Positions 5,539 to 58,355 of a stretch of 64,000 nt of DNA are shown here, one piece after another (the stretch's first letter is position 1; each line of letters starts with the position of its first letter). The translations under genes and the position numbers were made by a program. Under the pieces are notes generated by a model, which worked only from the letters and a program-made list of their open reading frames with translations, made no database searches and was not told the origin of the DNA. Source of the stretch: Candidatus Firestonebacteria bacterium RIFOXYD2_FULL_39_29 (GTDB lineage: Bacteria > Oederibacteriota > D2-FULL-39-29); NCBI GenBank assembly GCA_001778375.1, contig MFGV01000084.1, forward strand, positions 858 through 64,857. The letters run 5' to 3'.

Positions 5539-5566
5539 AGAACCAAGGACCCAGGGCCCAGAACCT
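5539..5566. repeat. Four in-phase degenerate heptamers AGAACCA AGGACCC AGGGCCC AGAACCT
   Basis: Read directly in the tonB-btuB spacer. Confidence 0.8.
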
Positions 5567-5577
5567 GCTCTTTACCG

Positions 5578-7404
5578 TTAGAACGTCAGTTTCACCCCCG
5601 CATTTAACGTTCTTCCCGGAAGCGGGTAGCTTTCTCTAAGTTCATAAACAGTATTCAAAATATTTTTCGCCGAGAAAATAAGCGTCACCTCTTTTATAAT
5701 CATAAGGTCTAATTTCGCATTTAAGGTAATAAAACTCGGGAGTGTTGTGACGGTACTTGCCTGTCTGACATCATAATATTCCGCATCTATTTTTAATTTC
5801 TGGCCAAGTAATTCATAGGCAACTCCAAGATTAGCTTTATTTTTTGGCCTGTATAAAAGTTCCAGATTTGTAATTTTATTTAAAGCCACCAGCCAGGTAT
5901 GTCCGGCAAACACATTGAGATTTTCAGCACATTTAATTTTAAGTTCTGATTCCACACCGTAGGTCTCTGCTTCTCCTACATTCGAGGGGGTCCAATCAAA
6001 AGAAGTCATATAGGTAGGATCTATAGGCGCCCAGTCTATAAGATCCTTTATCTGATTATTAAAATATGTAGTAGTTAAAATAGCAGACCTTCCGAACTCA
6101 AGATTTAAACCCGCTTCAAAAGAATTAGTTTTCTGCGGCAGTAACAAAGGATTCCCCGGCCCGCCCATAGCAGAAGTCGAATACAGTTCGGAAAAAGTCG
6201 GAGCTCTGAAAGAAGTGCCATAGGAGGTTCTTATCTGCACCCCGTCTTCAATATTATATACAAGCGCAAGCATTGGATTAAATGAATCACCATAAATAGA
6301 ATGACTGTCATAGCGCGCAGAAGCAGTAAATATCCAGGAACCGAGAAGATCGATTATATCCTGCGCAAAGCATGATTTTGTTGTGGCATTGTGGTCTCCC
6401 ATCCAATTTTGTTCATTCACACTATAATTGCCGCTTAAACCGATCGTAAATATATTAATTCCGCCAAAATCGTAAGTATAGGTTGTTTCGGTAAAAAAGT
6501 TTCTTTCTTCGCTCAAGGTAAAAATACCCGGCTGGAAAAAATTCAAAATACTTTTGCTCCCGTTTATTTTTACCCTAATATCGGAATCTTCGGTTAGAGG
6601 CAGGCGATAATCCACCCCGGCATTCAACCTTTCCATTTGCTGGCGGTCTAAGGGGGTCAACCAGAGCAAGGAACCGGGAGCACCGCTGTCGCTCTTGTAA
6701 GCCGTAAGGAGGGTTTTTAACGTATGATTTTTTGCAAAATCATATGAAAGTGAAAGACTCAGGTCATTGCTTAAAACATCACTATTCACCCTCTGACCGT
6801 TGGTAGCAAGATGCGAGCCTGAAAGATTCAAAGAAAGACCGCCCAGGTTATCTGAATATGAAGCCCTGAGGTCTTTAGTTGCAAACGAACCGTAAAAAGT
6901 TGAGATCTCCAGTGACCGTTTTTCTACACGGCTTTTAGTTATAATATTTATAACTCCGCCCGCCGCGTCCGCTCCGTAAAGCGAAGAGGCCGGACCCTTC
7001 AACACTTCAATTCTTTCTATGTTATCAAGAGGCAGCGAGGAAAAATCAACAAGGCCCTGATATGAAGAGTTTAACCTTACACCGTTTATAAGCACCAGAG
7101 TTCCTTCAGAGCCGATTCCACGGATCATAACGCTTTGCGTCTGTCCAATTGCTCCGACTTTTCCCGAGTCAACACCGGGAATCTCAGAAACTGCCAGACC
7201 TGCATTCTTATCCCCGCCGTTTGCAACTTTTGAATCATCAACTATAGCAAGCGAGCCGGGAGATTCCCTAAGCGCTTTTTCCACTCTGGAACCGGTAACA
7301 ACAATATCATCCAGCTGGAAAAACTCTTTTTCAGGTTTAACCGTGCCACTATCTTCCGCAAAAGCAGATACAGCAAGTACCAGTACGAGCAATAACTTTT
7401 TCAT
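5578..7404 (-). CDS. btuB: TonB-dependent outer-membrane receptor, BtuB-like (cobalamin/cobamide)
   Basis: Signal peptide, TonB box/plug (DDIVVTGSR..), 608 aa beta-barrel ending in ..GVKLTF. Sits in the riboswitch-controlled B12 operon. Confidence 0.8.
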   Translation of the reverse strand: MKKLLLVLVLAVSAFAEDSGTVKPEKEFFQLDDIVVTGSRVEKALRESPGSLAIVDDSKVANGGDKNAGLAVSEIPGVDSGKVGAIGQTQSVMIRGIGSEGTLVLINGVRLNSSYQGLVDFSSLPLDNIERIEVLKGPASSLYGADAAGGVINIITKSRVEKRSLEISTFYGSFATKDLRASYSDNLGGLSLNLSGSHLATNGQRVNSDVLSNDLSLSLSYDFAKNHTLKTLLTAYKSDSGAPGSLLWLTPLDRQQMERLNAGVDYRLPLTEDSDIRVKINGSKSILNFFQPGIFTLSEERNFFTETTYTYDFGGINIFTIGLSGNYSVNEQNWMGDHNATTKSCFAQDIIDLLGSWIFTASARYDSHSIYGDSFNPMLALVYNIEDGVQIRTSYGTSFRAPTFSELYSTSAMGGPGNPLLLPQKTNSFEAGLNLEFGRSAILTTTYFNNQIKDLIDWAPIDPTYMTSFDWTPSNVGEAETYGVESELKIKCAENLNVFAGHTWLVALNKITNLELLYRPKNKANLGVAYELLGQKLKIDAEYYDVRQASTVTTLPSFITLNAKLDLMIIKEVTLIFSAKNILNTVYELRESYPLPGRTLNAGVKLTF

Positions 7405-7422
7405 ATTAAAATCCTCCTATTT

Positions 7423-7529
7423 AATTACAATGACTATTGACTAATTACTAATGACTATTTAATGAGGATTATTATATATGCTGTTTACAGCTTCCTTAAA
7501 TAGTCATTAGTCACTAGTACTTAGTCATT
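7423..7529. repeat. Inverted-arm intergenic element, TAGTC-heptamer family, copy 1
   Basis: Left arm is AATTACAATGACTATTGACTAATTACTAATGACTATTT. Right arm is TTAAATAGTCATTAGTCACTAGTACTTAGTCATT, an imperfect reverse complement. The right arm includes the cobS stop codon. Confidence 0.8.
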
Positions 7530-8262
7530 AATATTTTAATTTTATTGCAAAAATTAACAAGGCTGCAACTTCCGTCACTTCCACCGTGAAACCGAAAATA
7601 TCTCCTGTAACGCCGCCAAGCTTATTTTTAAAGTATTTCATGATAATCAGCGCCGCTGCTGCCGCGCAGACAAAAGCAACAAGACCCCGCAGGCCGAAAA
7701 ACACTGAAAGAAGCAGGGCAAATGCAGTTATTATTATGAACTGCGTGTTTGTAATGTTTTGACAGTATACCTTCCCCATTCCGTACTTTTTAGCATAGGG
7801 AGAATATTTCATTAATATTGTCATGGAATATCTTCCCAAAACAGGGAAAAGTAATAATGCTGGATAAACATTGTAAAAGGAAAGTTTTATTATAATAATT
7901 ACTTTTAGAAGTAAAATAAAGGCTGCCCAGGCTGCCCCTTTTGCGCCGGTTGCGCTGTCTTCCATTATCCTGAAAATATCTTTTTTTGTTCTTCCGCCGT
8001 ATAAACCGTCTACCGTATCCGTAAACCCGTCAAGGTGCAGGGCTCCGGTTAAAAGCAGATATACACCGATAACAAGGACCGAAGGAAGCAAAAATACAAA
8101 TATTTTGCTGAAAACAAAATATGATAAGGCCAGCAAAGCTCCTATTATAAGTCCGACAAGAGGATAATAGGTAACCGATCCCGGGAGTTCATTTTGTTTT
8201 ATATTTTTTATTTTAAACGGAATATTTGTCAGGAACTGTAAAGCAATAAGAAAACTTTTCAC
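7528..8262 (-). CDS. cobS: Adenosylcobinamide-GDP ribazoletransferase (cobalamin synthase)
   Basis: 244 aa polytopic protein with the HLDGFTDTVDGL motif. 4-nt overlap with cobU. Confidence 0.85.
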   Translation of the reverse strand: MKSFLIALQFLTNIPFKIKNIKQNELPGSVTYYPLVGLIIGALLALSYFVFSKIFVFLLPSVLVIGVYLLLTGALHLDGFTDTVDGLYGGRTKKDIFRIMEDSATGAKGAAWAAFILLLKVIIIIKLSFYNVYPALLLFPVLGRYSMTILMKYSPYAKKYGMGKVYCQNITNTQFIIITAFALLLSVFFGLRGLVAFVCAAAAALIIMKYFKNKLGGVTGDIFGFTVEVTEVAALLIFAIKLKY

Positions 8263-8804
8263 TTCTTTACCTCCAGAGGGATCCCTGATACCAGAAAAAA
8301 CACCTTTGCTGCACGTTCTGCAAAAATACGGTTAACCCGGCCCTGAATATCCCTGAAATCCCGGCCCAGCTTATTATCCGGGACCAGTCCCATACCTACT
8401 TCATTTGAGACTGCGATAACTTCCGCTTTTGCACCGGCGCAATACTTTGCAATTTCTTCCGCCGACGTCAATATCTCTTTTTCTTTTTCCCCTTTCATCA
8501 TCCTATTCGACACCCAGAGAGTCAGACAATCAATAAGAATAACCCTGTTTTTTTTATCCCCGCTTTTTACAGACTTTAAAAGATCAAGAGGTTCTTCCAC
8601 AGTGCACCAGCCTTCCCCCCGCTGTTTTTTATGCCTCTTTATCCTTTTTTTCATCTCCTCATCCAACCCTTGCATGGTAGCAATATACACCCTGTCTTTT
8701 GCACTCTTTACAGCCAATTCCTCCGCAAAAGAAGATTTCCCGCTCCGCGCACCACCGGTGATGAAGGTTAAGCTACTTACTTGGGGCATACTCTTTGTTT
8801 CCAT
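8259..8804 (-). CDS. cobU: Adenosylcobinamide kinase / adenosylcobinamide-phosphate guanylyltransferase
   Basis: P-loop ITGGARSGKSSFAE, about 180 aa, in operon context. Confidence 0.85.
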   Translation of the reverse strand: METKSMPQVSSLTFITGGARSGKSSFAEELAVKSAKDRVYIATMQGLDEEMKKRIKRHKKQRGEGWCTVEEPLDLLKSVKSGDKKNRVILIDCLTLWVSNRMMKGEKEKEILTSAEEIAKYCAGAKAEVIAVSNEVGMGLVPDNKLGRDFRDIQGRVNRIFAERAAKVFFLVSGIPLEVKK

Positions 8805-8828
8805 GCAAAAGCTCCTGTACTGCCATGA

Positions 8829-8972
8829 AATTACTAATGACTATTGACTAATGACAATTTAATGAATACGGCAAAGTACCGCCGTAGCATTTAATAAAAC
8901 AATATATTTATGTAGGCGGAAAGCTTTTTTCCGCCATCCTAAAATAGTCACTAGTCATTAGTACTTAGTCAT
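8829..8972. repeat. Inverted-arm intergenic element, TAGTC-heptamer family, copy 2
   Basis: Arms are AATTACTAATGACTATTGACTAATGACAATTT and AATAGTCACTAGTCATTAGTACTTAGTCATT. The interior carries hairpins ACGGC-N8-GCCGT and GGCGG-N11-CCGCC. Confidence 0.85.
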
Positions 8973-8973
8973 T

Positions 8974-10017
8974 CTATTTATTACTCACTCCTGCACTTTC
9001 AAACGTTGCCATTTCATTCAGGATCTTCACCGCCGCTTCAATAATACTCATAGAAAGCGCCGCGCCGGTACCTTCTCCGAGCCGGAGCTCAAGGTTTAAT
9101 ATCGGCTTAAGCTTTAAATGCTCCAGAGCAAATTTATGTCCGTTTTCTACGGAATTATGAGAGGCAATTATATATTCACCGGCTTTCGGTTCTATACCCA
9201 CTGCGATAAGTGCGGCCGCTGTTGAAATAAAGCCGTCAATCACCACCGGTACTTTTCTCATGGCTCCGCCGAGTATCACTCCTGCAAGCCCGCCTATTTC
9301 AAATCCCCCGACCTTAGAAAGAACATCTATCGCATCCCTACGGTCCGGCTTATTAACCGCTATTCCCTTTTCGATCAGCGCTATCTTATTTGCCAAACCT
9401 TTATCATCAATTCCTGTTCCCCGGCCTGTCACTTCTTTCACTGCTTTCCCCGTATATATGGAAGTAATCGCCGCGCTAGGGGAGGTATTTCCAATTCCCA
9501 TATCCCCAGTACCGATAATATCCAATTCTTTCTCTATAAAGACAACATCAATACCTGCTTCTATACTTTTAAGAGCGTCTTCCCTAGTCATCGCAGGACC
9601 TGACGTAAAACTTTTTGTTCCCATACCGATTTTCTTATCAACCAACCCTTTTATTCCTTTAAAATCATAATTAACACCCATATCTACAATGATAACCTTC
9701 GCTCCAACATGCCTGGCAATAACATTTATTCCCGCCCCGCCGTTTAAAAAGTTAAGCACCATTTGCGGGGTTACTTCCATAGGATAGGCTGACACTCCTT
9801 CCCTCGCAATCCCATGATCTCCTGCCATAGTAAATATAACTTTATTATTTAATACCGGATTCTTCTTTCCGCTTATAGCTACAACTGTTTTCGCAATCTC
9901 CTCAAGCCGCCCCAGACTACTGAGAGGTTTTGTAAGAAAATCCAACCGTTTTTGCGTAGCTGACAGCAGGTTCTTGTCTGTACCGGATATCTTTAGTTCA
10001 TGTTTACCTATTTTCAT
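8974..10017 (-). CDS. cobT: Nicotinate-nucleotide--dimethylbenzimidazole phosphoribosyltransferase
   Basis: 347 aa with DMGIGNTSPSAAI and GEGTGA motifs typical of CobT. Confidence 0.9.
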   Translation of the reverse strand: MKIGKHELKISGTDKNLLSATQKRLDFLTKPLSSLGRLEEIAKTVVAISGKKNPVLNNKVIFTMAGDHGIAREGVSAYPMEVTPQMVLNFLNGGAGINVIARHVGAKVIIVDMGVNYDFKGIKGLVDKKIGMGTKSFTSGPAMTREDALKSIEAGIDVVFIEKELDIIGTGDMGIGNTSPSAAITSIYTGKAVKEVTGRGTGIDDKGLANKIALIEKGIAVNKPDRRDAIDVLSKVGGFEIGGLAGVILGGAMRKVPVVIDGFISTAAALIAVGIEPKAGEYIIASHNSVENGHKFALEHLKLKPILNLELRLGEGTGAALSMSIIEAAVKILNEMATFESAGVSNK

Positions 10018-10034
10018 TTATACTCCTTTAAAAT

Positions 10035-10152
10035 AATTACAAAGTACGAATTACAAACTACAATATATGGTGTTATATACATATTTATTAAATATTGCGG
10101 GAGCTTTTCCCGCATTCATAAAATTGTCAATTGTCATTCGTCAATCGTAATT
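10035..10152. repeat. Intergenic element with heptamer arms and a conserved core hairpin
   Basis: Left arm is AATTACA AAGTACG AATTACA AACTACA. Core is TAAATATTGCGGGAGCTTTTCCCGCATTCATAAAAT. Right arm is TGTCAAT TGTCATT CGTCAAT CGTAATT. Confidence 0.85.
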
Positions 10153-10157
10153 TTTTT

Positions 10158-10691
10158 TTAGTACTCTATTCCTTTCCTTGCCGACACCCCTTTATCATAC
10201 GGGTGCTTTATTGCTTTCATTTCTGTTACCATATCGGCGGTTTTTATTATTATTTTTGAGGCATTTCTTCCGGTCAAAACCAGTTCCGTTGTTTTTGATT
10301 TGTTTTTTATTAAATTCAACAGCTCTTTTTCGCTTATTAATCCTCCAAAAACACAATTACTTATTTCATCCAGGATAACCAGATCGTATTTCCCGTTCTG
10401 ACTTGCATCTATTGCTGCATCGAACAGAAGTTCCGCATTCATTTTAAGTTCTGTCAAAGAAATATTTTTATCGAACATCGGATGCGTTTGGTCATTTCTG
10501 AATATTTTAACATTCTTAAATTTCTTAGAAAGCACAAGCTCTCCGGTTTTATTTCCGTTTGCTTTTAAGAATTGAAAGATTGCGATCTTAAAACCATTCC
10601 CGGCCGCCCTAAGCGCCAGACCGAAAGCCGCAGTGGTTTTTCCTTTCCCTTCCCCAGTATATATTTGAACCAGCCCCTTTTTTAATTTCAT
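10158..10691 (-). CDS. cobO: Cob(I)yrinic acid a,c-diamide / cob(I)alamin adenosyltransferase (CobA/CobO/BtuR type)
   Basis: IYTGEGKGKTTAAFGLALRAAG P-loop, 177 aa, 4-nt overlap with the upstream ATPase gene. Confidence 0.85.
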   Translation of the reverse strand: MKLKKGLVQIYTGEGKGKTTAAFGLALRAAGNGFKIAIFQFLKANGNKTGELVLSKKFKNVKIFRNDQTHPMFDKNISLTELKMNAELLFDAAIDASQNGKYDLVILDEISNCVFGGLISEKELLNLIKNKSKTTELVLTGRNASKIIIKTADMVTEMKAIKHPYDKGVSARKGIEY

Positions 10692-11440
10692 AGCAACACA
10701 TTCCCCTTTATCAGATTTACGTTAACGCCATAGACATCTTTTATTATTTTTCTCGTAACTACTTTTTTTGCCGTTCCTTCCGTATAGATCCTCCCCTTTT
10801 TTAAAAGTACCAGCTTTTTGCAGTATTTCGAAGCAAGATTAATATCATGAGAAATCATAATTACCGTTATTTTTACATTTTCATTCAACTTTTTTACAAG
10901 TTCAAGAATATCATACTGATGATTGATATCCAGATGACTTGTCGGTTCATCCAGTAAAAGGACTTTCGGCATTTGCGCTAAGGCGCGGGCAATAAAAACC
11001 CTCTGCCTTTCCCCGCTGCTTAATTCATCAATGTTCCTGTCTTTAAAGCGTGAAATATCCGCAAGCTTCATCGCGGAATTAACAATATCAACATCCTCTT
11101 TCCCTTCCCAGGAAAACCTTTTAATGTACGGAGAGCGCCCCATCATCACAATTTCAAATACCGTAAACGGAAATATAATTGTTTCATCCTGCGGGACCAT
11201 AGCAATATTTTTGGCAACAAACCCGGTATCCAGTTTAAATATATCCTGACCTTTGAAAAACACATTCCCTGCTCCGGGTTTTAACCCTCTGCAAAGCATT
11301 TTAAGAAGTGTTGTTTTACCCGAACCGTTAGGCCCTATTATCCCGATAAAATCAGCTTCTTCAACAGAGAGATTGATATTATTCAACACCTGCTTTTCCC
11401 CGTAGCCGAACGTTATGTTTTTTGCTTCAAGTATTTTCAC
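10688..11440 (-). CDS. btuD: ABC transporter ATP-binding protein (BtuD/FepC-like)
   Basis: Walker A GPNGSGKTT, signature LSSGERQRV, Walker B LLLDEP. Start re-set to a GTG overlapping the btuC TGA (GTGA). The longer track ORF would overlap btuC by 100 nt. Confidence 0.85.
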   Translation of the reverse strand: MKILEAKNITFGYGEKQVLNNINLSVEEADFIGIIGPNGSGKTTLLKMLCRGLKPGAGNVFFKGQDIFKLDTGFVAKNIAMVPQDETIIFPFTVFEIVMMGRSPYIKRFSWEGKEDVDIVNSAMKLADISRFKDRNIDELSSGERQRVFIARALAQMPKVLLLDEPTSHLDINHQYDILELVKKLNENVKITVIMISHDINLASKYCKKLVLLKKGRIYTEGTAKKVVTRKIIKDVYGVNVNLIKGNVLL

Positions 11441-12459
11441 TTTTTCCTCTTTAAAAGATACAAAAATAACGGACCGCCTAAGATCGCGGTAACCACTCCT
11501 GTAGGTATTTCTGACGGTGCTATTACGCTCCTGCAAAGCGTATCCGAGAGAATTAAAAATATTCCACCGAGGAGTGCAGAGACCGGTATAAGAATACGGT
11601 GATCCGGCCCGACGATCATCCTTGCTATATGAGGAATTATCAGACCTACAAAACCAATCAGGCCGCTTACGGATACGGCAAGAGCCGTGAGCATAGAAGT
11701 CAGAACAAAGAGCATTTTTTTTACTTTTTCGGTTTTTACTCCAAGAAAAACCGCAGTTTCTTCTCCAACAGCAATAATATTCAGATCATTGCTGAACATG
11801 TAGATGACAAACATTAAAAGCAAGGCGACCGGGGTAATATAAGGAAGCAGATCATAGTTCGTATTATTTAAAGTACCCATCATCCAAACCACCACTTCTG
11901 CAAGTCCTTTATTTGAAACTGTGATAATAAGCATTATAAGAGCAGAAAAAGAAAAGTTAATAATAACCCCTGAAAGAAGTAATGTGTGTAAAGAGATCTT
12001 CCCTTTATTCCGGGCCAGACCATACACTAAGAACATTGATAAAAGCGCACCTGCAAACGCGGCAAAAGGGACTACAGGAACTCCAAAGAAGAAAAACGGC
12101 AAACTTGAAAGTATTATAATAGCAGCTCCAAGCGCCGCACCGCTTGAAACCCCTAGAAGATAAGGATCCGCAAGCGGATTTTTAAGAAGACCCTGAAATA
12201 CCGCGCCTGAGACCGAAAGTGAAGCACCGACTAAAAGAGCCAGCAAAACCCTGGGTATCCTGACTTTAAAAAGTATATCAGAGATAGTTTCATCCCAGGT
12301 AACAGGAATATACCCGCTGACTGCCGGTATTTTAGAAAGCATTATCTTAATTGCCGCACCCGGCTCAATAAAAACACCGCCTATAAATATCCCAAGGAAA
12401 ACACTCGAAATTAAAAGTATTATTCCAAGCAGTATGTAAGTTTTAAATCTATTTTTCAT
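11437..12459 (-). CDS. btuC: FecCD-family ABC permease (BtuC-like)
   Basis: About 340 aa with 9-10 TM helices and the typical FecCD C-terminus (GVVTAILGGPLFLYLL). Start set at ATG 12459; the track start is a GTG lying inside a dispersed repeat. Confidence 0.85.
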   Translation of the reverse strand: MKNRFKTYILLGIILLISSVFLGIFIGGVFIEPGAAIKIMLSKIPAVSGYIPVTWDETISDILFKVRIPRVLLALLVGASLSVSGAVFQGLLKNPLADPYLLGVSSGAALGAAIIILSSLPFFFFGVPVVPFAAFAGALLSMFLVYGLARNKGKISLHTLLLSGVIINFSFSALIMLIITVSNKGLAEVVVWMMGTLNNTNYDLLPYITPVALLLMFVIYMFSNDLNIIAVGEETAVFLGVKTEKVKKMLFVLTSMLTALAVSVSGLIGFVGLIIPHIARMIVGPDHRILIPVSALLGGIFLILSDTLCRSVIAPSEIPTGVVTAILGGPLFLYLLKRKK

Positions 12460-12474
12460 TTTACCTTTTGAAAA

Positions 12475-12520
12475 CGATTCCACTTCCGCCAGTTATATAG
12501 GGCGGATCTCTCGAAGAGAT
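12475..12520 (+). repeat. CCGCC-hairpin dispersed repeat, copy R1 (variant 5' end)
   Basis: CGATTCCACTTCCGCCAGTTATATAGGGCGGATCTCTCGAAGAGAT, near-identical to 22609-22654. Confidence 0.8.
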
Positions 12521-12535
12521 TGCAACTACAAATCA

Positions 12536-13366
12536 TCAAATATATTGCTCCAATAGTTTTTTTGTTATCTCTCGTGTTTTCTGCACTTCTCTCCGTCTTT
12601 GTTTTTCCGTTATTGCGATATCCTTCATGTGCGGTTTAAGTTCAAGTGTGGCCACGCAGCCTTTCGCAAGCTTCTTTGAATCTTTCAATATTTTAAAAAC
12701 CTCAGCATAATCCATATTTCCTCTCCCTAAAGGGAGGTGCGAATCTTCTTCGCCGTTGTTGTCATGGACATGCAGCTCGACAACGGAAAGCGGCAGCGAG
12801 TTGATATACTCGGAAATATTTTCTTTATCAATAAGTCCTTTTTTTACCGCAATATTCATATGCCCGAGGTCTAAAAGAATCCCGAGCCGCTTTGACTTTA
12901 TCGCTTTACTTATTTTTTGAAAATCAGAGATCTTTGAATTAACTGTCCAGTTTTCAATACCTACTTTAACTCTTGAGATATTCTTTAGAGTAAATTTGAG
13001 CGCCTTTATCGTATTATTCGCATTATAAACCACATCATGCCTTTCCCCAACTTCATCAAAAGCAGGGTCAAAACAGATATTTAAAACATGTTTTTCCATT
13101 TTGTTTCTTTTTATAAAACCTTTAATGTTATCCAGTCTGGTTTTCAGATCTTTTAAAAACCTTTTTTTTTTCATGGAGAAGAACGCCAGATGAAAAGTAA
13201 CAACTAATTTATTTTTCTTTATCGCCTCCGCAACGGCTTTTTCACTTGCATCTTCAAAGGAACTACCTAAAAAACTAATGGACGTAAATCCCATTCCGGC
13301 TAAATGGTCAATTGTATTAATAATGGACTTTTTTCGTATGTTCCAGATAGCGATACCAATCTTCAT
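12536..13366 (-). CDS. Xylose-isomerase-like TIM barrel / AP endonuclease 2 family protein; candidate CbiR-type cobamide-remodelling phosphodiesterase
   Basis: Fold-family motifs GILLDLGHMN and ELHVHDNNGEEDSHLPLGRGNMDY. It is the first gene after the cobalamin riboswitch. The CbiR assignment is by context and superfamily only. Confidence 0.55.
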   Translation of the reverse strand: MKIGIAIWNIRKKSIINTIDHLAGMGFTSISFLGSSFEDASEKAVAEAIKKNKLVVTFHLAFFSMKKKRFLKDLKTRLDNIKGFIKRNKMEKHVLNICFDPAFDEVGERHDVVYNANNTIKALKFTLKNISRVKVGIENWTVNSKISDFQKISKAIKSKRLGILLDLGHMNIAVKKGLIDKENISEYINSLPLSVVELHVHDNNGEEDSHLPLGRGNMDYAEVFKILKDSKKLAKGCVATLELKPHMKDIAITEKQRRREVQKTREITKKLLEQYI

Positions 13367-13396
13367 TGAGTCAATTTTCCTTTCTTAAAATAATTT

Positions 13397-13482
13397 TGTC
13401 ATTGCGAAACCTGCCTTTTGGTTGAAGCAATCTCGTTTTTTTATAGATTGCTTCGTCGTAAAAACTCCTCCTCGCAATGACA
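13397..13482. repeat. Nested palindromic element in the riboswitch-to-gene leader
   Basis: Outer arms TGTCATTGCGA (13397-13407) / TCGCAATGACA (13472-13482). Inner arms GAAGCAATCT (13424-13433) / AGATTGCTTC (13445-13454). Confidence 0.75.
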
Positions 13483-13487
13483 GAGCC

Positions 13488-13534
13488 CCAAATAAAAATG
13501 CACCTGCTTGTATTTTCACATACAAGCGAGGTGC
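13488..13534 (-). terminator. Intrinsic terminator, likely the riboswitch expression platform
   Basis: The minus strand reads GCACCTCGCTTGTATGTGAAAATACAAGCAGGTGC followed by ATTTTTATTTGG. Confidence 0.65.
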
Positions 13535-13589
13535 ACCCGTTCTAACTTGGCCCGCTAATTAAAAAACCGTTTATCCTTTGTTCCTCGAA

Positions 13590-13760
13590 GGAGACGGTGA
13601 TTCATTTTACGGTAAGGTTTTCTGGCTCGAAGGTCCAACCTACTCTTCCGCCTTCCCGTCCGCCGGAGGCGAGACAGTGGCTCTGGAATTTCGTTCCTTC
13701 TTACAGCACCGGGAGTGCGCCGGATTCACACCGGCTTCCCTACACCGCAAAACAACTACG
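13590..13760 (-). promoter_or_regulatory. Cobalamin (AdoCbl-type) riboswitch aptamer
   Basis: The minus strand reads GGGAAGCCGGTGTGAATCCGGCGCACTCCCGGTGCTGTAAG..GCCACTG..GGGAAGGCGG..GAGCCAGAAAACCTTACC. This matches the conserved GGGAA-GGTG-AA-CC, GCTGTAA, GCCACTG, GGGAAGGC and B12-box blocks. Confidence 0.9.
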
Positions 13761-13765
13761 CTTGT

Positions 13766-13794
13766 ATTCTAGCCAACATAATATTTTTTGTCAA
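13766..13794 (-). promoter_or_regulatory. Sigma-70-type promoter for the riboswitch operon
   Basis: Minus strand TTGACA (13794-13789), 17-nt spacer, TAGAAT (13771-13766), just upstream of the aptamer. Confidence 0.6.
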
Positions 13795-13833
13795 TACAAT
13801 TTTATAATTTTATAAATAAAGCAAGCGCAAACT

Positions 13834-13918
13834 GTAGTTGCCTGATTTATCAGGCGCTCGATTAATCGAGCAACTACAATATATATTGTTACTATAAATA
13901 TTTTCGGCTTTTGGCACA
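13834..13918 (+). repeat. GTAGTTGC three-stem element, copy 1
   Basis: GTAGTTGC [CCTGATTTATCAGG] CG [CTCGATTAATCGAG] CAACTAC, then AATAT...CTTTTGGCACA. The homolog is at 45731-45841. Confidence 0.75.
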
Positions 13919-13947
13919 TCCACATAAGCCTGAGGGATGTTCATATT

Positions 13948-14709
13948 TTATAGAACCATCAATACAATAGTTCCCATTATAAGCAAATATATGGAAAAAT
14001 AATGGAGTTTTTGTTTTTGGATGATATTTACGAGGAGCTTTGTGCAGAAGAAGCCGGTTATCGCGGCAACTAAAAGGCCTGTCAGGTAGACGGATATATC
14101 AATATTGACCATATCTGCTTTTGTTAGATGCCTTGTTTCTATTACTGCGGCTCCCAAAACAGCAGGAATGGAAAGGAGAAAGGAGAACTCAGCCGCAAAC
14201 TTCCTGTCAAGCTTTGCAAATAGACCTGCTGATATAGTGGAACCGGATCTGGAAATTCCCGGGATTATCGCGATACCCTGGATAAGCCCGACAAATAAAG
14301 CATTAAGCCAGGTCATTTCTTTTTCTGTTTTATTGCCGGTTTTTACCCTTCCTGCAAATAATAATATTATTGCAGTGCCAATAAGCGCCGCTCCGACTAG
14401 TTTTACATCGGTGAACATTTTTTCAAAAACATCTTTAAATGCAACACCTATGACACCGGTTACCGCTGTGGCAGTAAGGACCAGCATCAGCAGTTTTATA
14501 TTTTTAAATATCTCAACTATCCGTTTTCTAAAATATATCACAACCGCAAGGGCCGTACCCAGGTGAAGCGTCACATCAAACAGTATTCCCGGCTGGGAGA
14601 AGTTCTTAAATAAACTTTGTATCACAACAAGATGCCCCGAGGAGCTCACAGGGAGAAACTCTGTGAGACCCTGAACTATTCCGAGAATGATGGATTCAAG
14701 CAGTGTCAT
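13948..14709 (-). CDS. uppP: Undecaprenyl-diphosphate phosphatase
   Basis: GIVQGLTEFLPVSSSGHL and PGISRSGSTI motifs, 253 aa polytopic. Confidence 0.9.
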   Translation of the reverse strand: MTLLESIILGIVQGLTEFLPVSSSGHLVVIQSLFKNFSQPGILFDVTLHLGTALAVVIYFRKRIVEIFKNIKLLMLVLTATAVTGVIGVAFKDVFEKMFTDVKLVGAALIGTAIILLFAGRVKTGNKTEKEMTWLNALFVGLIQGIAIIPGISRSGSTISAGLFAKLDRKFAAEFSFLLSIPAVLGAAVIETRHLTKADMVNIDISVYLTGLLVAAITGFFCTKLLVNIIQKQKLHYFSIYLLIMGTIVLMVL

Positions 14710-14722
14710 ATTAACTCCAATA

Positions 14723-14925
14723 ACTAAGATTTAAGCACTAAATTCTAAACAATCACTAAGACTTAAATTCTAATCACTAAACTAAACCGTTGTAAGATAT
14801 TTATTTTTTTGTTGACAATATGTTTCAATGATTTTGTTTATCTCGCTATGGAAACGAATGTTTTCATCTATATATATTTCTAATCGAGAAAAGCTCTGCT
14901 TAAAATTTAGTGCTTAAATCTTAGT
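14723..14925. repeat. MITE-like element with perfect 21-bp terminal inverted repeats (TAAGCAC-heptamer family)
   Basis: ACTAAGATTTAAGCACTAAAT (14723-14743) is the exact reverse complement of ATTTAGTGCTTAAATCTTAGT (14905-14925). The element fills the gltX-uppP spacer. Confidence 0.85.
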
Positions 14926-14936
14926 AATTCACAATC

Positions 14937-16373
14937 TTAAAATATTTTAAGATTGGCCTCCATTCTCTTAATGCATTCTGCTGAGCCCAGGGCGGGGAGG
15001 ACATTTGCAAGCTCTTCACCGTGTTCTGCGCCGGTAATGGCGATACGGATGGGCATAAACAGGTCTTTGCCTTTTACTCCTGCTTTTTTTCCGGCTTCGG
15101 CAATGAGCGCTTTACAGTTTTCCTTGGTTATCTCCGTTGCTTTCAAAACTTCAATGAAGGCATTAATAGTCGCAGCGGCATTATTTATTCCGCTCCAAAC
15201 GTTTACGGCAACCTGATCAACGGCTTTTGCTTCAGTAAAAACGGAAGCAAGCTCGGGGATCATATTAAAGGATTTAACACCCGTCTTTATTTTAAGGAGA
15301 ACATCTTTCTTCCACTCTTCGCTCTTCTCGATCTTTGCAAGATACGGGAGAGCATGTTTCAGGTAAACTTCTTCCGGCAGTTTCATAATATATTCGTGGT
15401 TCATCCAGACAAGTTTCTTCTCGTCAAAAATAGAACCGGAATGTCCGACATCTTTAATATCAAAACTCTTAAATATCTCTTCTTTTGTTTTTATCTCCAC
15501 GCCGTCTTTCGGATACCAACCAAGAAGGGACATGTAGTTAAACATTGCTTCAGGCAAAAATCCTTTGTCGCGGTAAGCAAGAAGAGATGTTTCCCCGTGC
15601 CTTTTTGAAAGCTTGCTCCTGTCAGCGCCGAGGATCATGGAAAGATGCGCAAACTCCGGCAACGGAAATCCAAAAGCCTCATAGAGCAATACCTGGCGGG
15701 GTGTATTTGAAAGATGGTCTTCACCTCTGATAACATGCGTGATTTTCATAAGATTATCATCAATAACGACAGCAAAGTTATATATAGGTACTCCGTCCGA
15801 ACGGGCAATAACAAAATCCCCTATCTCTTTCGTGTTAAACTCCACAGGCCCTCTTACCAGGTCATCAAACTTTACGATAACATTTTCAGCTACTTTAAAC
15901 CTTACAACAAACCTTTCTTTCTTCGCAAGTTTTGCCTGTATTTCCTGTTCTGAAAGTTTTGTACATTTCCCGCTGTATTTATAAGGCATACCCGCCTTAA
16001 CGGACTTTTGTCTCTCAACTTCCACTTCTTCAGGAGAACAGAAGCAATAATAAGCCTTTTTCTCCTTTAAAAGCTTGTCTAAATACTCATTATATATAGA
16101 AAGCCGCTTCATCTGGGTATACGGCCCAAACTCCCCTTTTTCGTTATCAATTCCAAAATATCCTTCATCCCAATCCAACCCCAGCCACTTGAGCGACTCG
16201 ACTATGACTTTCACCGCTTCAGGCGTAGACCTCTCCTGATCAGTATCCTCTATCCTGAGAATAAACACCCCTTCGGTCTTTTTAGCAAAAAGATAATTAA
16301 AAAGCGCCGTCCTGGCATTCCCTATATGCATGTACCCCGTCGGAGACGGAGCAAAACGTACTCTGTTTGTCAT
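14937..16373 (-). CDS. gltX: Glutamyl-tRNA synthetase
   Basis: RFAPSPTGYMHIGNARTALFNY (HIGH) and KLSKRHG (KMSKS) motifs, 478 aa. Confidence 0.95.
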   Translation of the reverse strand: MTNRVRFAPSPTGYMHIGNARTALFNYLFAKKTEGVFILRIEDTDQERSTPEAVKVIVESLKWLGLDWDEGYFGIDNEKGEFGPYTQMKRLSIYNEYLDKLLKEKKAYYCFCSPEEVEVERQKSVKAGMPYKYSGKCTKLSEQEIQAKLAKKERFVVRFKVAENVIVKFDDLVRGPVEFNTKEIGDFVIARSDGVPIYNFAVVIDDNLMKITHVIRGEDHLSNTPRQVLLYEAFGFPLPEFAHLSMILGADRSKLSKRHGETSLLAYRDKGFLPEAMFNYMSLLGWYPKDGVEIKTKEEIFKSFDIKDVGHSGSIFDEKKLVWMNHEYIMKLPEEVYLKHALPYLAKIEKSEEWKKDVLLKIKTGVKSFNMIPELASVFTEAKAVDQVAVNVWSGINNAAATINAFIEVLKATEITKENCKALIAEAGKKAGVKGKDLFMPIRIAITGAEHGEELANVLPALGSAECIKRMEANLKIF

Positions 16374-16377
16374 TGGT

Positions 16378-16812
16378 TTATCCTTTTAAAATCTTCTTTA
16401 GTTTCTTCTTTATATCTTCAACTTGTTTCTCCGTCAGCTTTCCTTTTCTTACTTTTTCCGGAATCTGCCAAATGGGGAGTTTTTTGTATTTATCATTCTT
16501 ATATCTCGGTATTACGTGCCAGTGGATATGATGCGTGATGTTGCCGAGGTTCTCATAGTTAAACCTTTCAGGTTTGAAGGCTTTGTCTATTGCAGCCGTC
16601 ACCCGCATCATATCTTCGTACAAACATTTTTGAACCTTCATCGGGAGTTTATGTGTATGTTCTTTGTGACTTTTTGTAAAGAGAATACAATATCCTTTAA
16701 AATACTGCCCTTCTGCCAAAATTACGTAGGACTCTTTTAATTCTGCAATTATCGGACAGGGTACTTTCTTCTTATATTTTACGATAGCTTTGCAAAAAAA
16801 GCATTTCTTCAT
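16378..16812 (-). CDS. HIT-family nucleotide hydrolase/transferase
   Basis: Histidine triad HHIHWHVIPR, 144 aa, 4-nt overlap with ispF. Confidence 0.8.
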   Translation of the reverse strand: MKKCFFCKAIVKYKKKVPCPIIAELKESYVILAEGQYFKGYCILFTKSHKEHTHKLPMKVQKCLYEDMMRVTAAIDKAFKPERFNYENLGNITHHIHWHVIPRYKNDKYKKLPIWQIPEKVRKGKLTEKQVEDIKKKLKKILKG

Positions 16813-17309
16813 TTCTTAAACATCCATTTTCTTTTTCTGGTTAGATTTACTATTGCGTGGGCTTGCATCGCTTTTTGGGTGCCGATATCTCCGAGCCCTT
16901 TGGCAGTGGTGGCTTTTATAGAGACTTGTTCCGGTTCAATAGAAAGCATTTTAGCTATATTTTCTTTCATTTCCCCAATGTACTGGGAAAGCTTTGGCTG
17001 CTCTGTCATTATTACAGTATCAATATTTATAATTTTATAATCTTTTTTTAATTTGTTTCCGACATGCTGTAATAGAATCAAACTGGAAGCGTCTTTATTT
17101 TCCGGCCGGTCCACGCCGAATATGAGACCAATATCACCTTCATCCGCCGCGCCAAGCAAAGCATCAATTATTGCGTGACATAAAATATCCGCATCGGAAT
17201 GCCCGTCCAGTCCGAGATGAAACGGAATATGCACTCCGCCGAGAATAAGATTTCTACCGTGTTTTAGTTTGTGAATATCAATGCCAAGACCTACGAGATT
17301 TGTGGACAT
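16809..17309 (-). CDS. ispF: 2-C-methyl-D-erythritol 2,4-cyclodiphosphate synthase
   Basis: GIDIHKL..GHSDADILCHAIIDALLGA motifs, 166 aa. Confidence 0.95.
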   Translation of the reverse strand: MSTNLVGLGIDIHKLKHGRNLILGGVHIPFHLGLDGHSDADILCHAIIDALLGAADEGDIGLIFGVDRPENKDASSLILLQHVGNKLKKDYKIINIDTVIMTEQPKLSQYIGEMKENIAKMLSIEPEQVSIKATTAKGLGDIGTQKAMQAHAIVNLTRKRKWMFKK

Positions 17310-17323
17310 AATAACTCCTTATA

Positions 17324-17453
17324 AATAATGACTATTGACTATTTATTGTTGGCGGAGAGAAAACTTCCGCCTTCATAATATTGATATTTTTAAAATATTG
17401 CGGCGGCACTTTGCCGCATTCATTAAATAGTCATTAGTCACTAGTCATTAGTA
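17324..17453. repeat. Inverted-arm intergenic element, TAGTC-heptamer family, copy 3
   Basis: Arms AATAATGACTATTGACTATTTATT / TAAATAGTCATTAGTCACTAGTCATTAGTAC. Interior has GGCGG-N11-CCGCC and GCGGCGGCACTTTGCCGC, in the opposite order to copy 2. Confidence 0.85.
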
Positions 17454-17458
17454 CTTTC

Positions 17459-19033: not shown

Positions 19034-19127
19034 GATGTTAAGTATTTTCAAATTAACCCTCACAAAATAATAATTTATCCGTCCGCTGTAAGCGAGACGA
19101 GATCTCTCCAAAACTTTATTTTGGAGG

Positions 19128-19195
19128 ACAGTGTACAGTTTACAGTTTAAATATATTACGTGAGCAACGTGATAACGTGTAACGTTCTAACGTAT
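19128..19195. repeat. Heptamer arrays (GTACAGT x2; ACGTGAN block)
   Basis: CAGTGTACAGTTTACAGTTT..ACGTGAGCAACGTGATAACGTGTAACGTTCTAACG. Bases 19157-19190 match the reverse complement of 32861-32894 at 32/34 positions. Confidence 0.85.
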
Positions 19196-19196
19196 T

Positions 19197-20399: not shown

Positions 20400-20532
20400 T
20401 TTGCCCGCTATATACGGGTTTTTTGTAATTTTAACAATTTAGCCCTATTTTACAGTAAAAATAGCTGTATTTCAAGACCCGATATTCACTAAGGAAGGCA
20501 GAGATTCTGAATCAGAAAAGGGAAATGAAAAA

Positions 20533-39404: not shown

Positions 39405-39405
39405 A

Positions 39406-45730: not shown

Positions 45731-45841
45731 TGTGCCAAAAGGTAGTTGCCTGATTTTAATCAGGCGCAATTGGCAGGCTCGATGAATCGAGCAACTACAA
45801 TATGTTGTGGTATCTGTAAAATATTTCAGACTTTTGGCACA
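45731..45841 (+). repeat. GTAGTTGC three-stem element, copy 2, enclosed by an 11-bp long-range inverted repeat
   Basis: TGTGCCAAAAG GTAGTTGC [CCTGATTTTAATCAGG] .. [CTCGATGAATCGAG] CAACTAC AATAT.. CTTTTGGCACA. Confidence 0.75.
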
Positions 45842-45953
45842 ACCTCTTGCGTCCGAGGTTTCGGCGAGTGGAATTCAATTTTATCCCGCTTCATGATATA
45901 TTTCCTATCGGGAAAAGCTTTGCTTATTATACATGCCGCCTTTTTGCGGATGT

Positions 45954-53681: not shown

Positions 53682-53706
53682 GCTCAGCCTTCCTTTCCAA
53701 ATTTTC

Positions 53707-53795
53707 GTTAAAACGTTACACGTTACTCACGTACCTTGCTAATGTGATATTATTATTTTAGCTGCGCCTCCGCTCATCCGCGCGTCTGAGCCTCT
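53707..53795. repeat. ACGTTAC heptamer arm plus GC-rich heptamer arm
   Basis: GTTAAAACGTTACACGTTACTCACGTACC (compare 32861-32897) ... GCTGCGCCTCCGCTCATCCGCGCGTCTGAGCCTCT (compare 21975-22010). Confidence 0.75.
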
Positions 53796-54498: not shown

Positions 54499-54568
54499 GC
54501 CTAAGTATACTATAATTAGGCCAAAAGTGGAAGAAAACAGGTTGAACCAGCTGAATCATCTGAATCAT

Positions 54569-54633
54569 CTGTGATATCTCTTTTTTATCTTTACTAAAAA
54601 TCCGCCCTATATAATTGGCGGATGTGTCATCAG
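54569..54633 (-). repeat. CCGCC-hairpin dispersed repeat, copy R5
   Basis: The reverse complement reads CTGATGACACATCCGCCAATTATATAGGGCGGATTTTTAGTAAAGATAAAAAAGAGATATCACAG. Confidence 0.85.
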
Positions 54634-56820: not shown

Positions 56821-56825
56821 CCCGA

Positions 56826-58298
56826 CTATTTACATAAACACTTTTCTATTCTTGCATCGCATTTTTGACACTTTTTAACATTTGCCGTAATCTCCCATCC
56901 CTTTGCTTCCTCCGGACCAAACATCATGAAATTTGCAGCAATTGTTTTACCCGAATAAGACACTTCAGCAGTTATTGTATTTCTTGCTTTGACCTTACCT
57001 GCTGTAATAGAAAAAGCTTTTTTATTTAAACTTGACATTTCTTTATCTTTTACTTCCCAGCCCTTTGGGGCTGTTAAATTAACAGCAGCATTTACGGGTA
57101 AACTATTTTTTAGCACCGAAATCTCGACAGTCTTTGTTATTTCCGGAAGTAATACGGGATCCCCGTTGTAATGCAGAATAATTTTTAGACCCTCCCTTAC
57201 GACAATTGAAGACAAAGGATCTGTCAGGAGTATCTCTCTTGCTTTTTCATTTCTGAAAAGCAGCGATAAGACCTCTTTTGGAAGAACGGTTTTACTCCCG
57301 AATTCCACCGTGTCGGAATACTGTTCGTATTTTTCCGCCAGTTTTAGCATCCTGCCGGACAATTCTTTAATTGTTTTTGGCGAATTAAATTTTCCCGTAA
57401 AAACATGAAGAATTATATTTTCCCCGATAGGTTTCAGCCACTTTTCAGGAATAGCTTTTCTGCCGCCGATTATACCAAGGAGCGACCCGAGGGTGGCGCC
57501 GGTGCAATCCGTATCATACCCGCAATTAACAGCCTTGCACAATTTATCCCCGAAATCTTTTCCGTACAGCCAGCCAAGTATCGTAAAACCGTGGTTTGGC
57601 ACGGCATGGCACGGATGATTATTTCCATACGCCTCGACAATCCTGTTTCTGGCATCCGCCCAGACTATTTTATTTTCAAAACACCAGACTGCGTCACGGA
57701 TAACTCTGGATATTTCCGAGTAGCACGGAATCATAGCCAACCCGATATTAATAAGTGTTTTTGGATCTTTTTCGACAAAGGCTGCGCTCTCAACGGCAGC
57801 CCAGAACATCTCACCATATAATCCTTCCCCGCCTGTATGATCCATTACAGAATCCTTCCAGGCCATTTCGGCAGCTACCTCAGGATTTCCGGGAAAAAGA
57901 CACGCCCAAATCTCGCTTCGGATAGGAGAGCCCATATTGTCTATGTAAAAATTTTCAAAACAACCGGAGATAGGAGGCAGGAGGCCTCTGTCAAGATTTC
58001 TCGCACAAAATCCATACTCGTCCCAGGGATAAATACTCGTATATTTTTTCCAGTATTCCGCAAAATCCTCGATTTCCGGTATTCCTTTTTTATCTTCCAG
58101 AAGCTTAAGCCATACAAGCTGCAGATCAAGATCATCATTGGGAGCCGAACCATTCGGAACCGGAGTGTAAAAATCAAGGCTGTTTAAATATTTTTTACAT
58201 TCATAAGGCGCGCCAAATGTTCCGCCAATATTTTTCCCCAGCCAGCATGCGTACATTTTGTCATAATATTCCTTTTTGCTAAGTTTGATCCTTTTCAT
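56826..58298 (-). CDS. ADP-ribosylglycohydrolase-family protein with about 150 aa C-terminal extension
   Basis: GYDTDCTGATLGSLLG metal-site motif. 490 aa versus about 300-350 typical. C-terminus ends CQKCDARIEKCLCK. Confidence 0.8.
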   Translation of the reverse strand: MKRIKLSKKEYYDKMYACWLGKNIGGTFGAPYECKKYLNSLDFYTPVPNGSAPNDDLDLQLVWLKLLEDKKGIPEIEDFAEYWKKYTSIYPWDEYGFCARNLDRGLLPPISGCFENFYIDNMGSPIRSEIWACLFPGNPEVAAEMAWKDSVMDHTGGEGLYGEMFWAAVESAAFVEKDPKTLINIGLAMIPCYSEISRVIRDAVWCFENKIVWADARNRIVEAYGNNHPCHAVPNHGFTILGWLYGKDFGDKLCKAVNCGYDTDCTGATLGSLLGIIGGRKAIPEKWLKPIGENIILHVFTGKFNSPKTIKELSGRMLKLAEKYEQYSDTVEFGSKTVLPKEVLSLLFRNEKAREILLTDPLSSIVVREGLKIILHYNGDPVLLPEITKTVEISVLKNSLPVNAAVNLTAPKGWEVKDKEMSSLNKKAFSITAGKVKARNTITAEVSYSGKTIAANFMMFGPEEAKGWEITANVKKCQKCDARIEKCLCK

Positions 58299-58323
58299 TT
58301 TGTATTCCTCCTTGTGATTTTCA

Positions 58324-58355
58324 AGTACTAAGCACTAATGACTAGTGACTATTTA
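58324..58355. repeat. Half copy of the TAGTC-heptamer arm
   Basis: AGTACTAAGCACTAATGACTAGTGACTATTTA, directly upstream of the ARH start. Confidence 0.7.

Follow-up and report, generated by a model that had tools for sequence, protein, structure and literature searches.

Reports of intergenic repeats built of seven-nucleotide words date back to 1990 for cyanobacteria and have since been extended to Xanthomonas, Beggiatoaceae and other bacteria; both the origin and the function of these repeats are unsettled. The present study concerns such arrays in Candidatus Firestonebacteria bacterium RIFOXYD2_FULL_39_29, in a stretch of 64,000 nt of contig MFGV01000084.1 (GCA_001778375.1), hereafter the window. 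A literature search on repeats in Firestonebacteria found nothing relevant. In cyanobacteria, the short tandemly repeated repetitive sequences (STRRs) are 7-bp intergenic repeats capable of forming hairpins, as between hupS and hupL; their function is unknown, and roles in transcript stability, translational coupling and termination have been proposed (PMC2670836). Xanthomonas genomes contain arrays of the heptamer GGGAATC, with ∼70 convergent inverted pairs close to the ends of open reading frames (ORFs); the type of array (single or inverted pair) is conserved between species, and length and details vary (Rehm et al. 2015, PMC4692102). In Beggiatoaceae and in some members of the Cyanobacteria and Bacteroidetes, TAACTGA arrays lie a short distance ahead of start codons and display indels in 7-nt steps between strains (MacGregor 2015, PMC4679880). 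Repetitive extragenic palindromic (REP) sequences also form inverted doublets, the REPINs, which are associated with REP-associated tyrosine transposases (RAYTs) (Bertels and Rainey 2011, PMC3116915).

Tentatively, we favour the reading that the arrays of the window are heptad arrays of the STRR kind that make up the arms of dispersed palindromic units resembling REPs and REPINs. A preliminary description of this DNA had held that its gene content is not cyanobacterial, and this is borne out: the nearest relatives of its CobT protein (8974-10017, minus strand) are all encoded in metagenome-assembled genomes (MAGs) of Candidatus Firestonebacteria, with 83-84% identity in loci L001-L004, 71% in L005 and 68% in L006. 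The TonB system and the cobalamin salvage genes represent Gram-negative gene content. Three spacers recur below and are referred to as B (10018-10157, cobO>cobT), C (8805-8973, cobT>cobU) and D (7405-7527, cobS>TonB-dependent receptor). A single cobalamin riboswitch (13594-13764, minus strand) stands at the head of a series of same-strand genes for B12 transport and salvage, which extends to ∼4883 and comprises FecCD, an ABC ATPase, cobO, cobT, cobU, cobS, the TonB-dependent receptor and tonB, so that the three spacers probably lie within one operon, as is the case for intra-operon REPs and bacterial interspersed mosaic elements (BIMEs).

Period-7 arrays in non-coding DNA

The preliminary description reported degenerate heptanucleotide words in the spacers, and all of its examples are present in the sequence (5539-5566, 7499-7526, 10035-10062, 10125-10152, 26623-26650, 14723 onward and 21906-22010, the last with a period of 7-8). 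Coverage was measured with four-unit windows of at least 70% identity at lag 7, using 30 dinucleotide-preserving shuffles as control; intergenic and coding bases were counted on a crude gene map of the longest non-overlapping ORFs. Such windows cover 518 of 9318 intergenic bases (5.6%), compared with a mean of 11.7 (∼0.1%) and a maximum of 64 bases in the shuffles, and the period-7 excess anticipated from the examples is therefore present in the window. Only 38 of 54479 coding bases (0.07%) are covered, in keeping with the earlier impression that coding sequence holds nothing comparable. Lags 5, 8 and 10-12 did not rise above the shuffle range; lags 6 and 9 did so modestly. Tandem Repeats Finder returned rows of period 7 or 14 at 7429, 7501, 8829, 8945, 10035, 10122, 14897, 17329, 17428, 19128, 19166, 26621, 32982, 40275 and 40377. 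The arrays are real, and specific to period 7 and to non-coding DNA.

The CobU protein of the window has exact matches on 23 contigs, ten of which were fetched; they originate from various samples and assemblers, and their alignable parts have 99.7-100% identity with the window. In up to nine of them (L081-L083, L085-L090), spacers B, C and D agree with the window base for base wherever they are covered, with zero length changes. The tenth contig, L084, is a strain variant that differs by replacement and not by steps of 7 nt. Identical spacers in nine independent assemblies rule out an assembly artefact, and also mean that the arrays are not hypervariable.

The statement that almost every spacer carries arrays was too strong. 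A three-unit detector found them in 12 of the 32 gaps of at least 45 nt (shuffles: mean 3.2, maximum 7), a number that rises to 14 if the groES-groEL spacer and the period-14 gltX-bacA spacer are included. Several word families do exist, as described, but the word does not change with each spacer, since AATGACT recurs in four spacers, CTAAG in three and ACGTT in three. The reported closeness to gene borders holds: across the window and its relatives, the first array lies at most 12 nt from the stop codon in 20 of 36 array-bearing spacers, and the last array ends at most 35 nt before the start codon in 23 of 36. The cobS stop codon was correctly placed inside an array, with 7528-7530 as the first triplet of the first unit. 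Enrichment of stop trinucleotides was likewise found (11% of array positions and 6.4% elsewhere in intergenic DNA, ∼1.7-fold), but the antisense strand is similarly enriched (9.2% and 5.1%), and what was taken for stop-codon richness thus reflects word composition.

Arrays with a 9-nt period were also observed, AGTTTATAA in 4.4 copies at 21833-21883 and TGAATCATC in 3.2 copies at 54543-54571, so that seven is not the sole period in use. The orthologous spacers of L001, L003 and L094 contain units of 9-10 nt (AAAGGTCCAT..).

Inverted arms and their evolutionary behaviour

The preliminary description missed that the two arrays of a spacer are inverted relative to each other. Read along the minus strand, which is the coding one, a typical unit consists of the stop codon, an arm of three to five degenerate heptads, the AT linker TTTAATGAAT and a GC hairpin, followed by AATATT and AT-rich DNA, in some cases with a further GC hairpin, and then by the opposite arm and the ribosome-binding site (RBS). 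Units fill junctions of same-direction genes, and their arms are separated by a core of 45-130 nt. Inverted partners are significant in five spacers of the window and in seven of relatives (0 of 100 shuffles reach the score); in the gltX-bacA spacer the arms match at 30 of 33 positions. On the sense strand, two module hairpins score as resembling terminators. The arm-arm stems of spacers 8805-8973 and 17310-17458 enclose two GC hairpins apiece, which is the inverted-doublet arrangement of REPs and REPINs.

In the source genome the heptad motif is A-W-K-K-A-C-T (T-W-G-T-M-A-Y on the other strand), and units are anchored on an invariant AC as A-[A/G/T]-[T/G]-[G/T]-A-C-N. Alignment of 13 modules from three genomes revealed invariant T, G and T columns every 7 nt (T..GT) beside the linker and the GC hairpin, and the AATGACT family is represented by seven arms in four spacers of the window. 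Comparison of left arms with the reverse complement of right arms gave 365 matches and 79 mismatches, the latter divided into 18 sense G-U pairs, 17 antisense G-U pairs and 44 transversions, with no RNA-strand signature. Paired units agree at positions 2-4 in proportions of 0.67/0.48/0.45, where 0.67/0.51/0.48 are expected for independent draws, and no unit-by-unit covariation between arms was found beyond the lineage-specific position 7. Since paired units agree at chance level, the two arms are neither mutual copies nor co-varying helices; each is an independent array of the same degenerate motif, and the second is set in the opposite orientation to the first.

These counts bear on whether the units are RNA-level regulatory hairpins under selection for arm pairing in polycistronic mRNA, acting as an RNase III site, a stabiliser or an insulator, which we consider improbable. 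Such a role would suit the position between stop codon and RBS inside an operon, the stems of ∼30 bp that span the whole spacer (folding z-scores of whole spacers -4.9 to -7.2 on the sense strand), the complementarity of arms in every species despite differing words, and the transcript stabilisation proposed for STRR hairpins (PMC2670836). However, the antisense strand folds equally well (z-scores -4.6 to -7.2), sense and antisense wobbles among the mismatches are balanced and outnumbered by transversions, and covariation is absent. Moreover, many arrays have no partner, and a substitution in the left arm of spacer C in the relative L096 is not compensated in the right arm. Rfam searches of the whole window at the gathering threshold, and of 5000-23000 at E ≤ 1, returned only the cobalamin riboswitch, tRNA and a chance match to a miRNA precursor, which falls on the 7428-7530 hairpin.

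Neighbouring units resemble each other less than units further apart do. Identical units make up 4 of 57 adjacent pairs and 14 of 55 non-adjacent pairs in the same array (permutation P = 0.003), and within-arm identity is 0.68 at lag 14 and 0.67 at lag 7, a pattern that is the opposite of the outcome of recent slippage. Ordinary heptanucleotide microsatellites that arose by replication slippage, with 7 as a favoured slippage unit, and then decayed neutrally are therefore a very unlikely source of the arrays. Heptanucleotides are said to be the commonest class of long simple sequence repeats in many prokaryotes, with polymerase slippage as the proposed cause (Mrazek 2007, as cited in PMC4679880 and PMC4692102), and the arrays do occupy unconstrained space up to the gene borders. 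Against slippage stand the absence of length polymorphism in up to nine assemblies of 99.8-100% identity, the low lag-7 identity, far from near-perfect head-to-tail repetition, the order of units, which is kept between the window and L096, and the finding of the same multi-unit arm sequence in different spacers and species. Slippage, one of the roles suggested in the preliminary description, is accordingly disfavoured by the dissimilarity of adjacent units and the stable copy number.

Orthologous junctions of relatives often contain arrays as well, with other words. At gltX>bacA the word is CTAAG in the window, TTCGA in L004 and CCAAG in L006, and the two arms are complementary within each genome. 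The dominant word varies with lineage: AATGACT/AATTACT in the window and L096; AAAGTAC/AAATTAC in the JAZDIO MAG, L171, L001, L003 and L094; and AAGACGG/ACAGAGG/AATCAGT in L006 and L095. Units are also gained or lost, and the cobS>receptor junction contains a full unit and measures 123-153 nt in the window, L002 and L096, but lacks a unit and measures 23-27 nt in L001, L003 and L006. Near-identical modules are found at junctions that are not orthologous. The spacers 17310-17458 and 8805-8973 have 58 nt in common at 91% identity in opposite orientation, spacers C and D of L002 have 37 nt in common at 95%, and the right arm of spacer B in the window matches both of these L002 arms. In 17310-17458, the left arm and linker match the paralog in spacer C at 38 of 41 positions and the orthologs in L171 and L172 at 27 of 44, whereas for the first hairpin the agreement is 19 of 24 with the paralog and 21-23 of 24 with the orthologs. 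In this one module, then, the arm follows the genome and the hairpin core follows orthology. The layout of stop codon, array, core, array and RBS also occurs in loci titled Omnitrophica, Elusimicrobiales, Planctomycetia and Clostridia.

Two changes were observed in the strain variant L084, whose scaffold contains a gap of Ns. At 2798-2901 the hairpin core of spacer B is swapped for AGAAATC-family heptad arrays between flanking genes that are 99.7-100% identical, and at 5526-5608, at the contig end, the right arm of spacer D is altered.

Relative to L096, coding DNA is ∼78% identical and spacer C 83-95%, the spacer thus outdoing its flanking genes. Within it, 85 nt that include the hairpin, linker, right arm and RBS are identical, while CobT has diverged by 12% in amino acids. 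Such constancy would be expected if the arms were serial binding sites of a DNA- or RNA-binding protein specific to the lineage, with the 7-nt motif under selection and arm complementarity as a by-product. This explanation seems unlikely to us. Candidate proteins would include nucleoid factors, termination factors and proteins of the S1/Csp type that act on unstructured leaders. It accommodates the three heptad positions that are invariant over 13 copies where the others are free, the chance-level agreement of variable positions in paired units, the predominance of transversions without G-U bias among arm mismatches, and single arms right upstream of an RBS (3841-3892 in L171/L172, 58322 in the window). 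Similar proposals have been published for TAACTGA arrays (PMC4679880). On the other hand, at least six unrelated word families, some of them GC-rich, exist in one genome and several proteins would be needed, no candidate protein has been identified, and binding alone leaves the presence or absence of units at orthologous junctions and the co-travelling GC hairpins unaccounted for.

In L096 both arms of spacer D are unmoved, but the 45-nt core between them (7457-7501 in the window) has the opposite orientation; flipped in silico, the window core matches L096 at 43 of 45 positions. This is direct evidence for a DNA-level role of the arms as inverted repeats. It also raises the question of invertons, in which the arms would be the inverted repeats of a phase-variable switch that flips a promoter or terminator in the core, for instance upstream of the TonB-dependent receptor. 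Genes for outer-membrane receptors are a classic case of phase variation, and TATAAT is present on the sense strand of this core in the window orientation. We give little credence to such a switch. The two orientations differ between species only, six further assemblies of the species and L084 all have the window orientation, and one inversion was seen among ∼6 orthologous core comparisons. There is no convincing -35/-10 pair within the core, a sigma-70 promoter scan of the cores gave no convincing sites and an overall count barely above shuffles, and no invertase turned up among the window proteins scanned, in a partial scan without a dedicated search.

A small dispersed element (..GAAAAGCTNTGCTTA.. 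/ AAGCAAAGCTTTTCCCGATAGGAA) was observed at 14840-14902 and 45880-45930 of the window, at 9789-9904 of L001 and at 8177-8416 of L002. Relative to L171 it constitutes an insertion of ∼66 nt inside the gltX-bacA core, and nested insertions thus occur in array spacers.

A RAYT-like transposase and a possible origin of the units

The ORF at 27510-28073 (minus strand) encodes a Y1 transposase (Pfam PF01797, E = 3e-18), for which the best NCBIfam model is the REP-associated tyrosine transposase (69.6 bits, compared with 28.9 bits for IS200). An identical palindrome, AAAGGGACAGTCCCTTAGGGACTGTCCCTTT, with a 14-nt period, flanks the gene on both sides (27467-27495 and 28142-28170). Homologs are frequent in Firestonebacteria, with at least three paralogs in one genome, and all homologs examined have doublets or triplets of GGGACAGTCCC or GTGACAGTCAC at their flanks, with a period of 14 nt (7+7). 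On the Omnitrophota contig L181, a 47%-identical Y1 homolog adjoins AGGGACAGCGACTATTTT, and AGGGACAGCGACTATTTT...AAAATAGTCGCTGTCCCT form classical REPIN inverted doublets there, which fill two other spacers of this contig from stop codon to start codon. All seven AATGACT-family arms of the window share the inner end of this REPIN, GACTATTT. A REPIN-type mechanism is plausible on these grounds, although they do not link the RAYT-like gene of the window to the arms. L181 also contains a second palindrome family, GGGACACCCT/AGGGTGTCCC.

If the arrays are indeed arms of REP/REPIN-like units, the units would have been spread and homogenised at the DNA level. One route would be a RAYT-type single-strand transposase that recognises hairpins, as encoded in the window and by several paralogs in the phylum; the other would be recombination or gene conversion between arms. 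Once settled, units may provide a long intercistronic stem and terminator-like hairpins in polycistronic transcripts, by analogy with what is thought of REP/BIME and STRR hairpins. The degeneracy of neighbouring units would probably result from selection against slippage and against long perfect palindromes. Among the three roles suggested in the preliminary description, arms of non-autonomous mobile elements fit best, in view of the dispersed near-identical modules, presence and absence at orthologous junctions, homogenisation of an arm within a genome and the RAYT-like gene.

Several observations weigh against this reading. Copy numbers cover the 64-kb window and ∼150 kb from relatives and do not amount to a genome-wide figure. 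Arrays that are single or stand beside an unlike array occur in the window (19128/19166, 53706/53761, 58322, 5533), and relatives also have unpaired or unlike arrays, for example spacer B of L004 and 3364-3583 of L006. The contrast between paralog and ortholog comes from one module only, and the CTAAG-family arm at gltX>bacA is well conserved relative to its ortholog in L171. The RAYT match of 69.6 bits lies under the NCBIfam cut-off of 80 bits, and the GGGACAGTCCC palindromes beside the RAYT-like gene of the window are not heptad arms. Neither are these flanking palindromes dispersed in the window or in the 173 loci compared, where the window has one singlet, GTGACTGTCAC at 27239-27249. Target-site duplications and sharp element ends could not be defined, the filled and empty orthologous sites being too diverged. 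A metagenome scan found no relatives of the cobT locus closer than 88%, so exact insertion boundaries were not obtainable. No transposase of the type associated with miniature inverted-repeat transposable elements was found among ∼30 window proteins scanned against Pfam, though inverted arms are present. The RNA-level role of the units is purely inferred, and the 7-nt period has no explanation in any known REP/RAYT mechanism.

In a wider form, the proposal would be that heptad arms are arrays of half-sites for a hairpin-recognising Y1 (RAYT-type) enzyme family expanded in Firestonebacteria and neighbouring candidate phyla, that STRR-type repeats are a specialised, rewritable kind of REPIN in which a lineage "dialect" overwrites arms genome-wide, and that recombination between arms flips the terminator- or promoter-bearing core. 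We regard this version as rather unlikely. If true, it would supply a general origin for long-unexplained heptamer repeats of bacteria.

Feature coordinates, additional elements and comparison with known systems

Coordinates of the arms, cores and related features. Positions refer to the window unless a contig is named.
Feature	Position	Strand	Details
Arm at cobS stop codon	7496-7530	-	sense TAA TGACTAA GTACTAG TGACTAA TGACTAT; inverted partner significant, 0/100 shuffles
Core of cobS>receptor spacer, 45 nt	7457-7501	.	small hairpin GCTGTTTACAGC at 7480-7491; alignment; opposite orientation in L096
Arm by RBS of receptor gene 5578-7404	7428-7463	-	plus strand AATGACT ATTGACT AATTACT AATGACT
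Arm directly 3' of cobT stop codon	8941-8973	-	AATGACT family
cobT>cobU core	8862-8940	.	GC hairpins 8868-8885 and 8915-8935; homologous to 17310-17458 core, opposite orientation
Arm ahead of cobU RBS	8827-8861	-	within 85-nt stretch identical in L096
Arm past cobO stop codon	10120-10153	-	sense AATTACG ATTGACG AATGACA ATTGACA
Module hairpin GCGGGAGCTTTTCCCGC	10097-10113	-	terminator-like on sense strand
Arm ahead of cobT RBS	10034-10067	-	sense TTGTAGT TTGTAAT TCGTACT TTGTAAT; near-identical in L002 spacers C and D
Arm ahead of bacA RBS	14722-14787	-	CTAAG/TTAAG family, period 7/14; partner match 30/33
Partner arm past gltX stop codon	14897-14929	-	
Arm past stop codon of gene 17459-18145	17422-17457	-	AATGACT family
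Core with two GC hairpins	17351-17417	.	hairpins 17351-17371 and 17400-17417, both conserved in orthologous spacers of L171 and L172; 17400-17417 terminator-like on sense strand
Arm ahead of ispF RBS	17319-17351	-	
Two unlike arrays	19128-19196	-	ACAGTTT x3 (19128-19148), AACGTGN x4 (19166-19196); no significant pairing
Array, module hairpin and arm	32860-33016	-	ACGTT-word array 32860-32897, module hairpin 32958-32976, AATTGTC-family arm 32980-33016
Inverted CTAAG-family arms	40275-40440	-	40275-40306 and 40377-40440
Two arrays	53706-53793	-	ACGTT-word array 53706-53735 before RBS; GC-rich period-7-8 array 53761-53793 at stop codon
Lone arm before RBS of gene 56826-58298	58322-58356	-	AATGACT family; partner absent
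Single array in receptor gene/tonB gap	5533-5566	-	GC-richer, AGAACCA AGGACCC AGGGCCC AGAACCT
Array in groES-groEL spacer	26619-26656	-	TTCGAAT x4; word self-complementary
Arrays at stop codon of gene 22011-22490	21938-22012	-	GC-rich, period 7-8
Y1 homolog/REPIN and second-family sites on L181	9823-10000, 11641-11716, 17643-17737, 16478-16565		

Other small repeats are scattered through the window. A dispersed element of ∼70 nt with CCGCCAAT..ATAGGGCGGATCYTTCGAAGAGA and GATGACAC motifs is present at 22491-22955, 37251-37500, 12484-12535 and 54499-54614; the copy in 37251-37500 is inverted relative to that in 22491-22955 (92.5% identity over 67 nt), and the matches at the remaining two sites are shorter. 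A conserved "cloverleaf" palindrome, GTAGTTGC[CTGATTTATCAG]GCG[CTCGATTAATCGAG]CAACTAC followed by TTTTGGCAC, was found at 13834-13880 and 45742-45800 and also in L002 and L004, and one copy shortly precedes the promoter of the cobalamin riboswitch. At 4782-4809 on the minus strand there is a near-consensus sigma-70 promoter, TTGACA-16-TATACT preceded by a TG, in a block of 52 nt that has 100% identity in L002 and 94% in L004. From this promoter, canonical promoters appear to be used in the phylum, and none like it is present in array-bearing cores. Ahead of the aminotransferase gene 19197-20399, a conserved leader (20400-20470, minus strand) contains ..TTTTACTGTAAAATA.. and then a hairpin, AAAAACCCGTATATAGCGGGTA, that directly precedes the start codon. 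The leader is common to L171, L172 and L173, has no Rfam match, and may be an attenuator or an unrecognised cis-regulatory RNA.

The repeats of the window belong to a known but unexplained type, intergenic heptamer arrays that are often inverted, here found in a new phylum and in a variant form. Informative features are arrays of a degenerate motif in place of perfect repeats, an arm that follows the genome beside a core that follows orthology, gain and loss at orthologous junctions, the core inversion, and RAYT-like genes with palindromes of 7+7 nt. A link to REPs and RAYTs, if true, would join two classes of bacterial repeats that have so far been treated separately and make the question of origin testable on existing metagenomes; if false, the present data document a new lineage well for a repeat type that is known and still unexplained.

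STRRs were the only analogue named in the preliminary description. The analogy holds, in that the unit of 7 nt is tandem, intergenic, often hairpin-forming and found inside operons, but it is shared with the arrays of Xanthomonas, with TAACTGA and with other heptanucleotide repeats. The host here belongs to Firestonebacteria and not to the filamentous or heterocystous cyanobacteria; its words and those of its relatives are AATGACT, AAGTACA, CTAAG, ACGTT and others, whereas those of STRR1-3 are reportedly CCCCAGT, TTGGTCA and CAACAGT (Mazel et al. in 1990). Units here are degenerate and never perfect, a core of 45-130 nt with GC hairpins separates the arms, and multi-unit arms are dispersed and, in one module compared, more alike within a genome than between genomes.

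Xanthomonas arrays resemble ours as intergenic heptamer arrays near the ends of ORFs that form inverted pairs. They consist, however, of one G-rich word that is capable of forming G-quadruplexes and is often perfectly repeated, while the arrays of the window are made of AT-rich degenerate words from several families and are tied to a GC-hairpin module. TAACTGA arrays are likewise intergenic heptamer arrays, in 2-6 copies mostly a few nt before the start codon, and have a patchy spread (PMC4679880). They differ in that only one exact word is used and its repeats are nearly all direct (the BOGUAY genome has one indirect repeat); ours have degenerate words, commonly inverted arms and a core.

With REPs, BIMEs and REPINs the units share extragenic GC palindromes that occur as singlets and as inverted doublets forming a larger hairpin, several families per genome, a species-specific consensus, an intra-operon location and a palindrome-flanked RAYT-like gene in the window. 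Dispersal as measured here in a partial genome amounts to seven AATGACT arms in four spacers of 64 kb and 13 alignable modules in three genomes. Tandem-heptad arms are not a feature of REPs, and the palindromes that flank the RAYT-like gene differ from the dispersed arms. The traits of the Firestonebacteria variant are arrays of a degenerate motif, arms split by a hairpin core, dispersed modules, an arm that is more alike within a genome (in at least one case) and inversion of the core.

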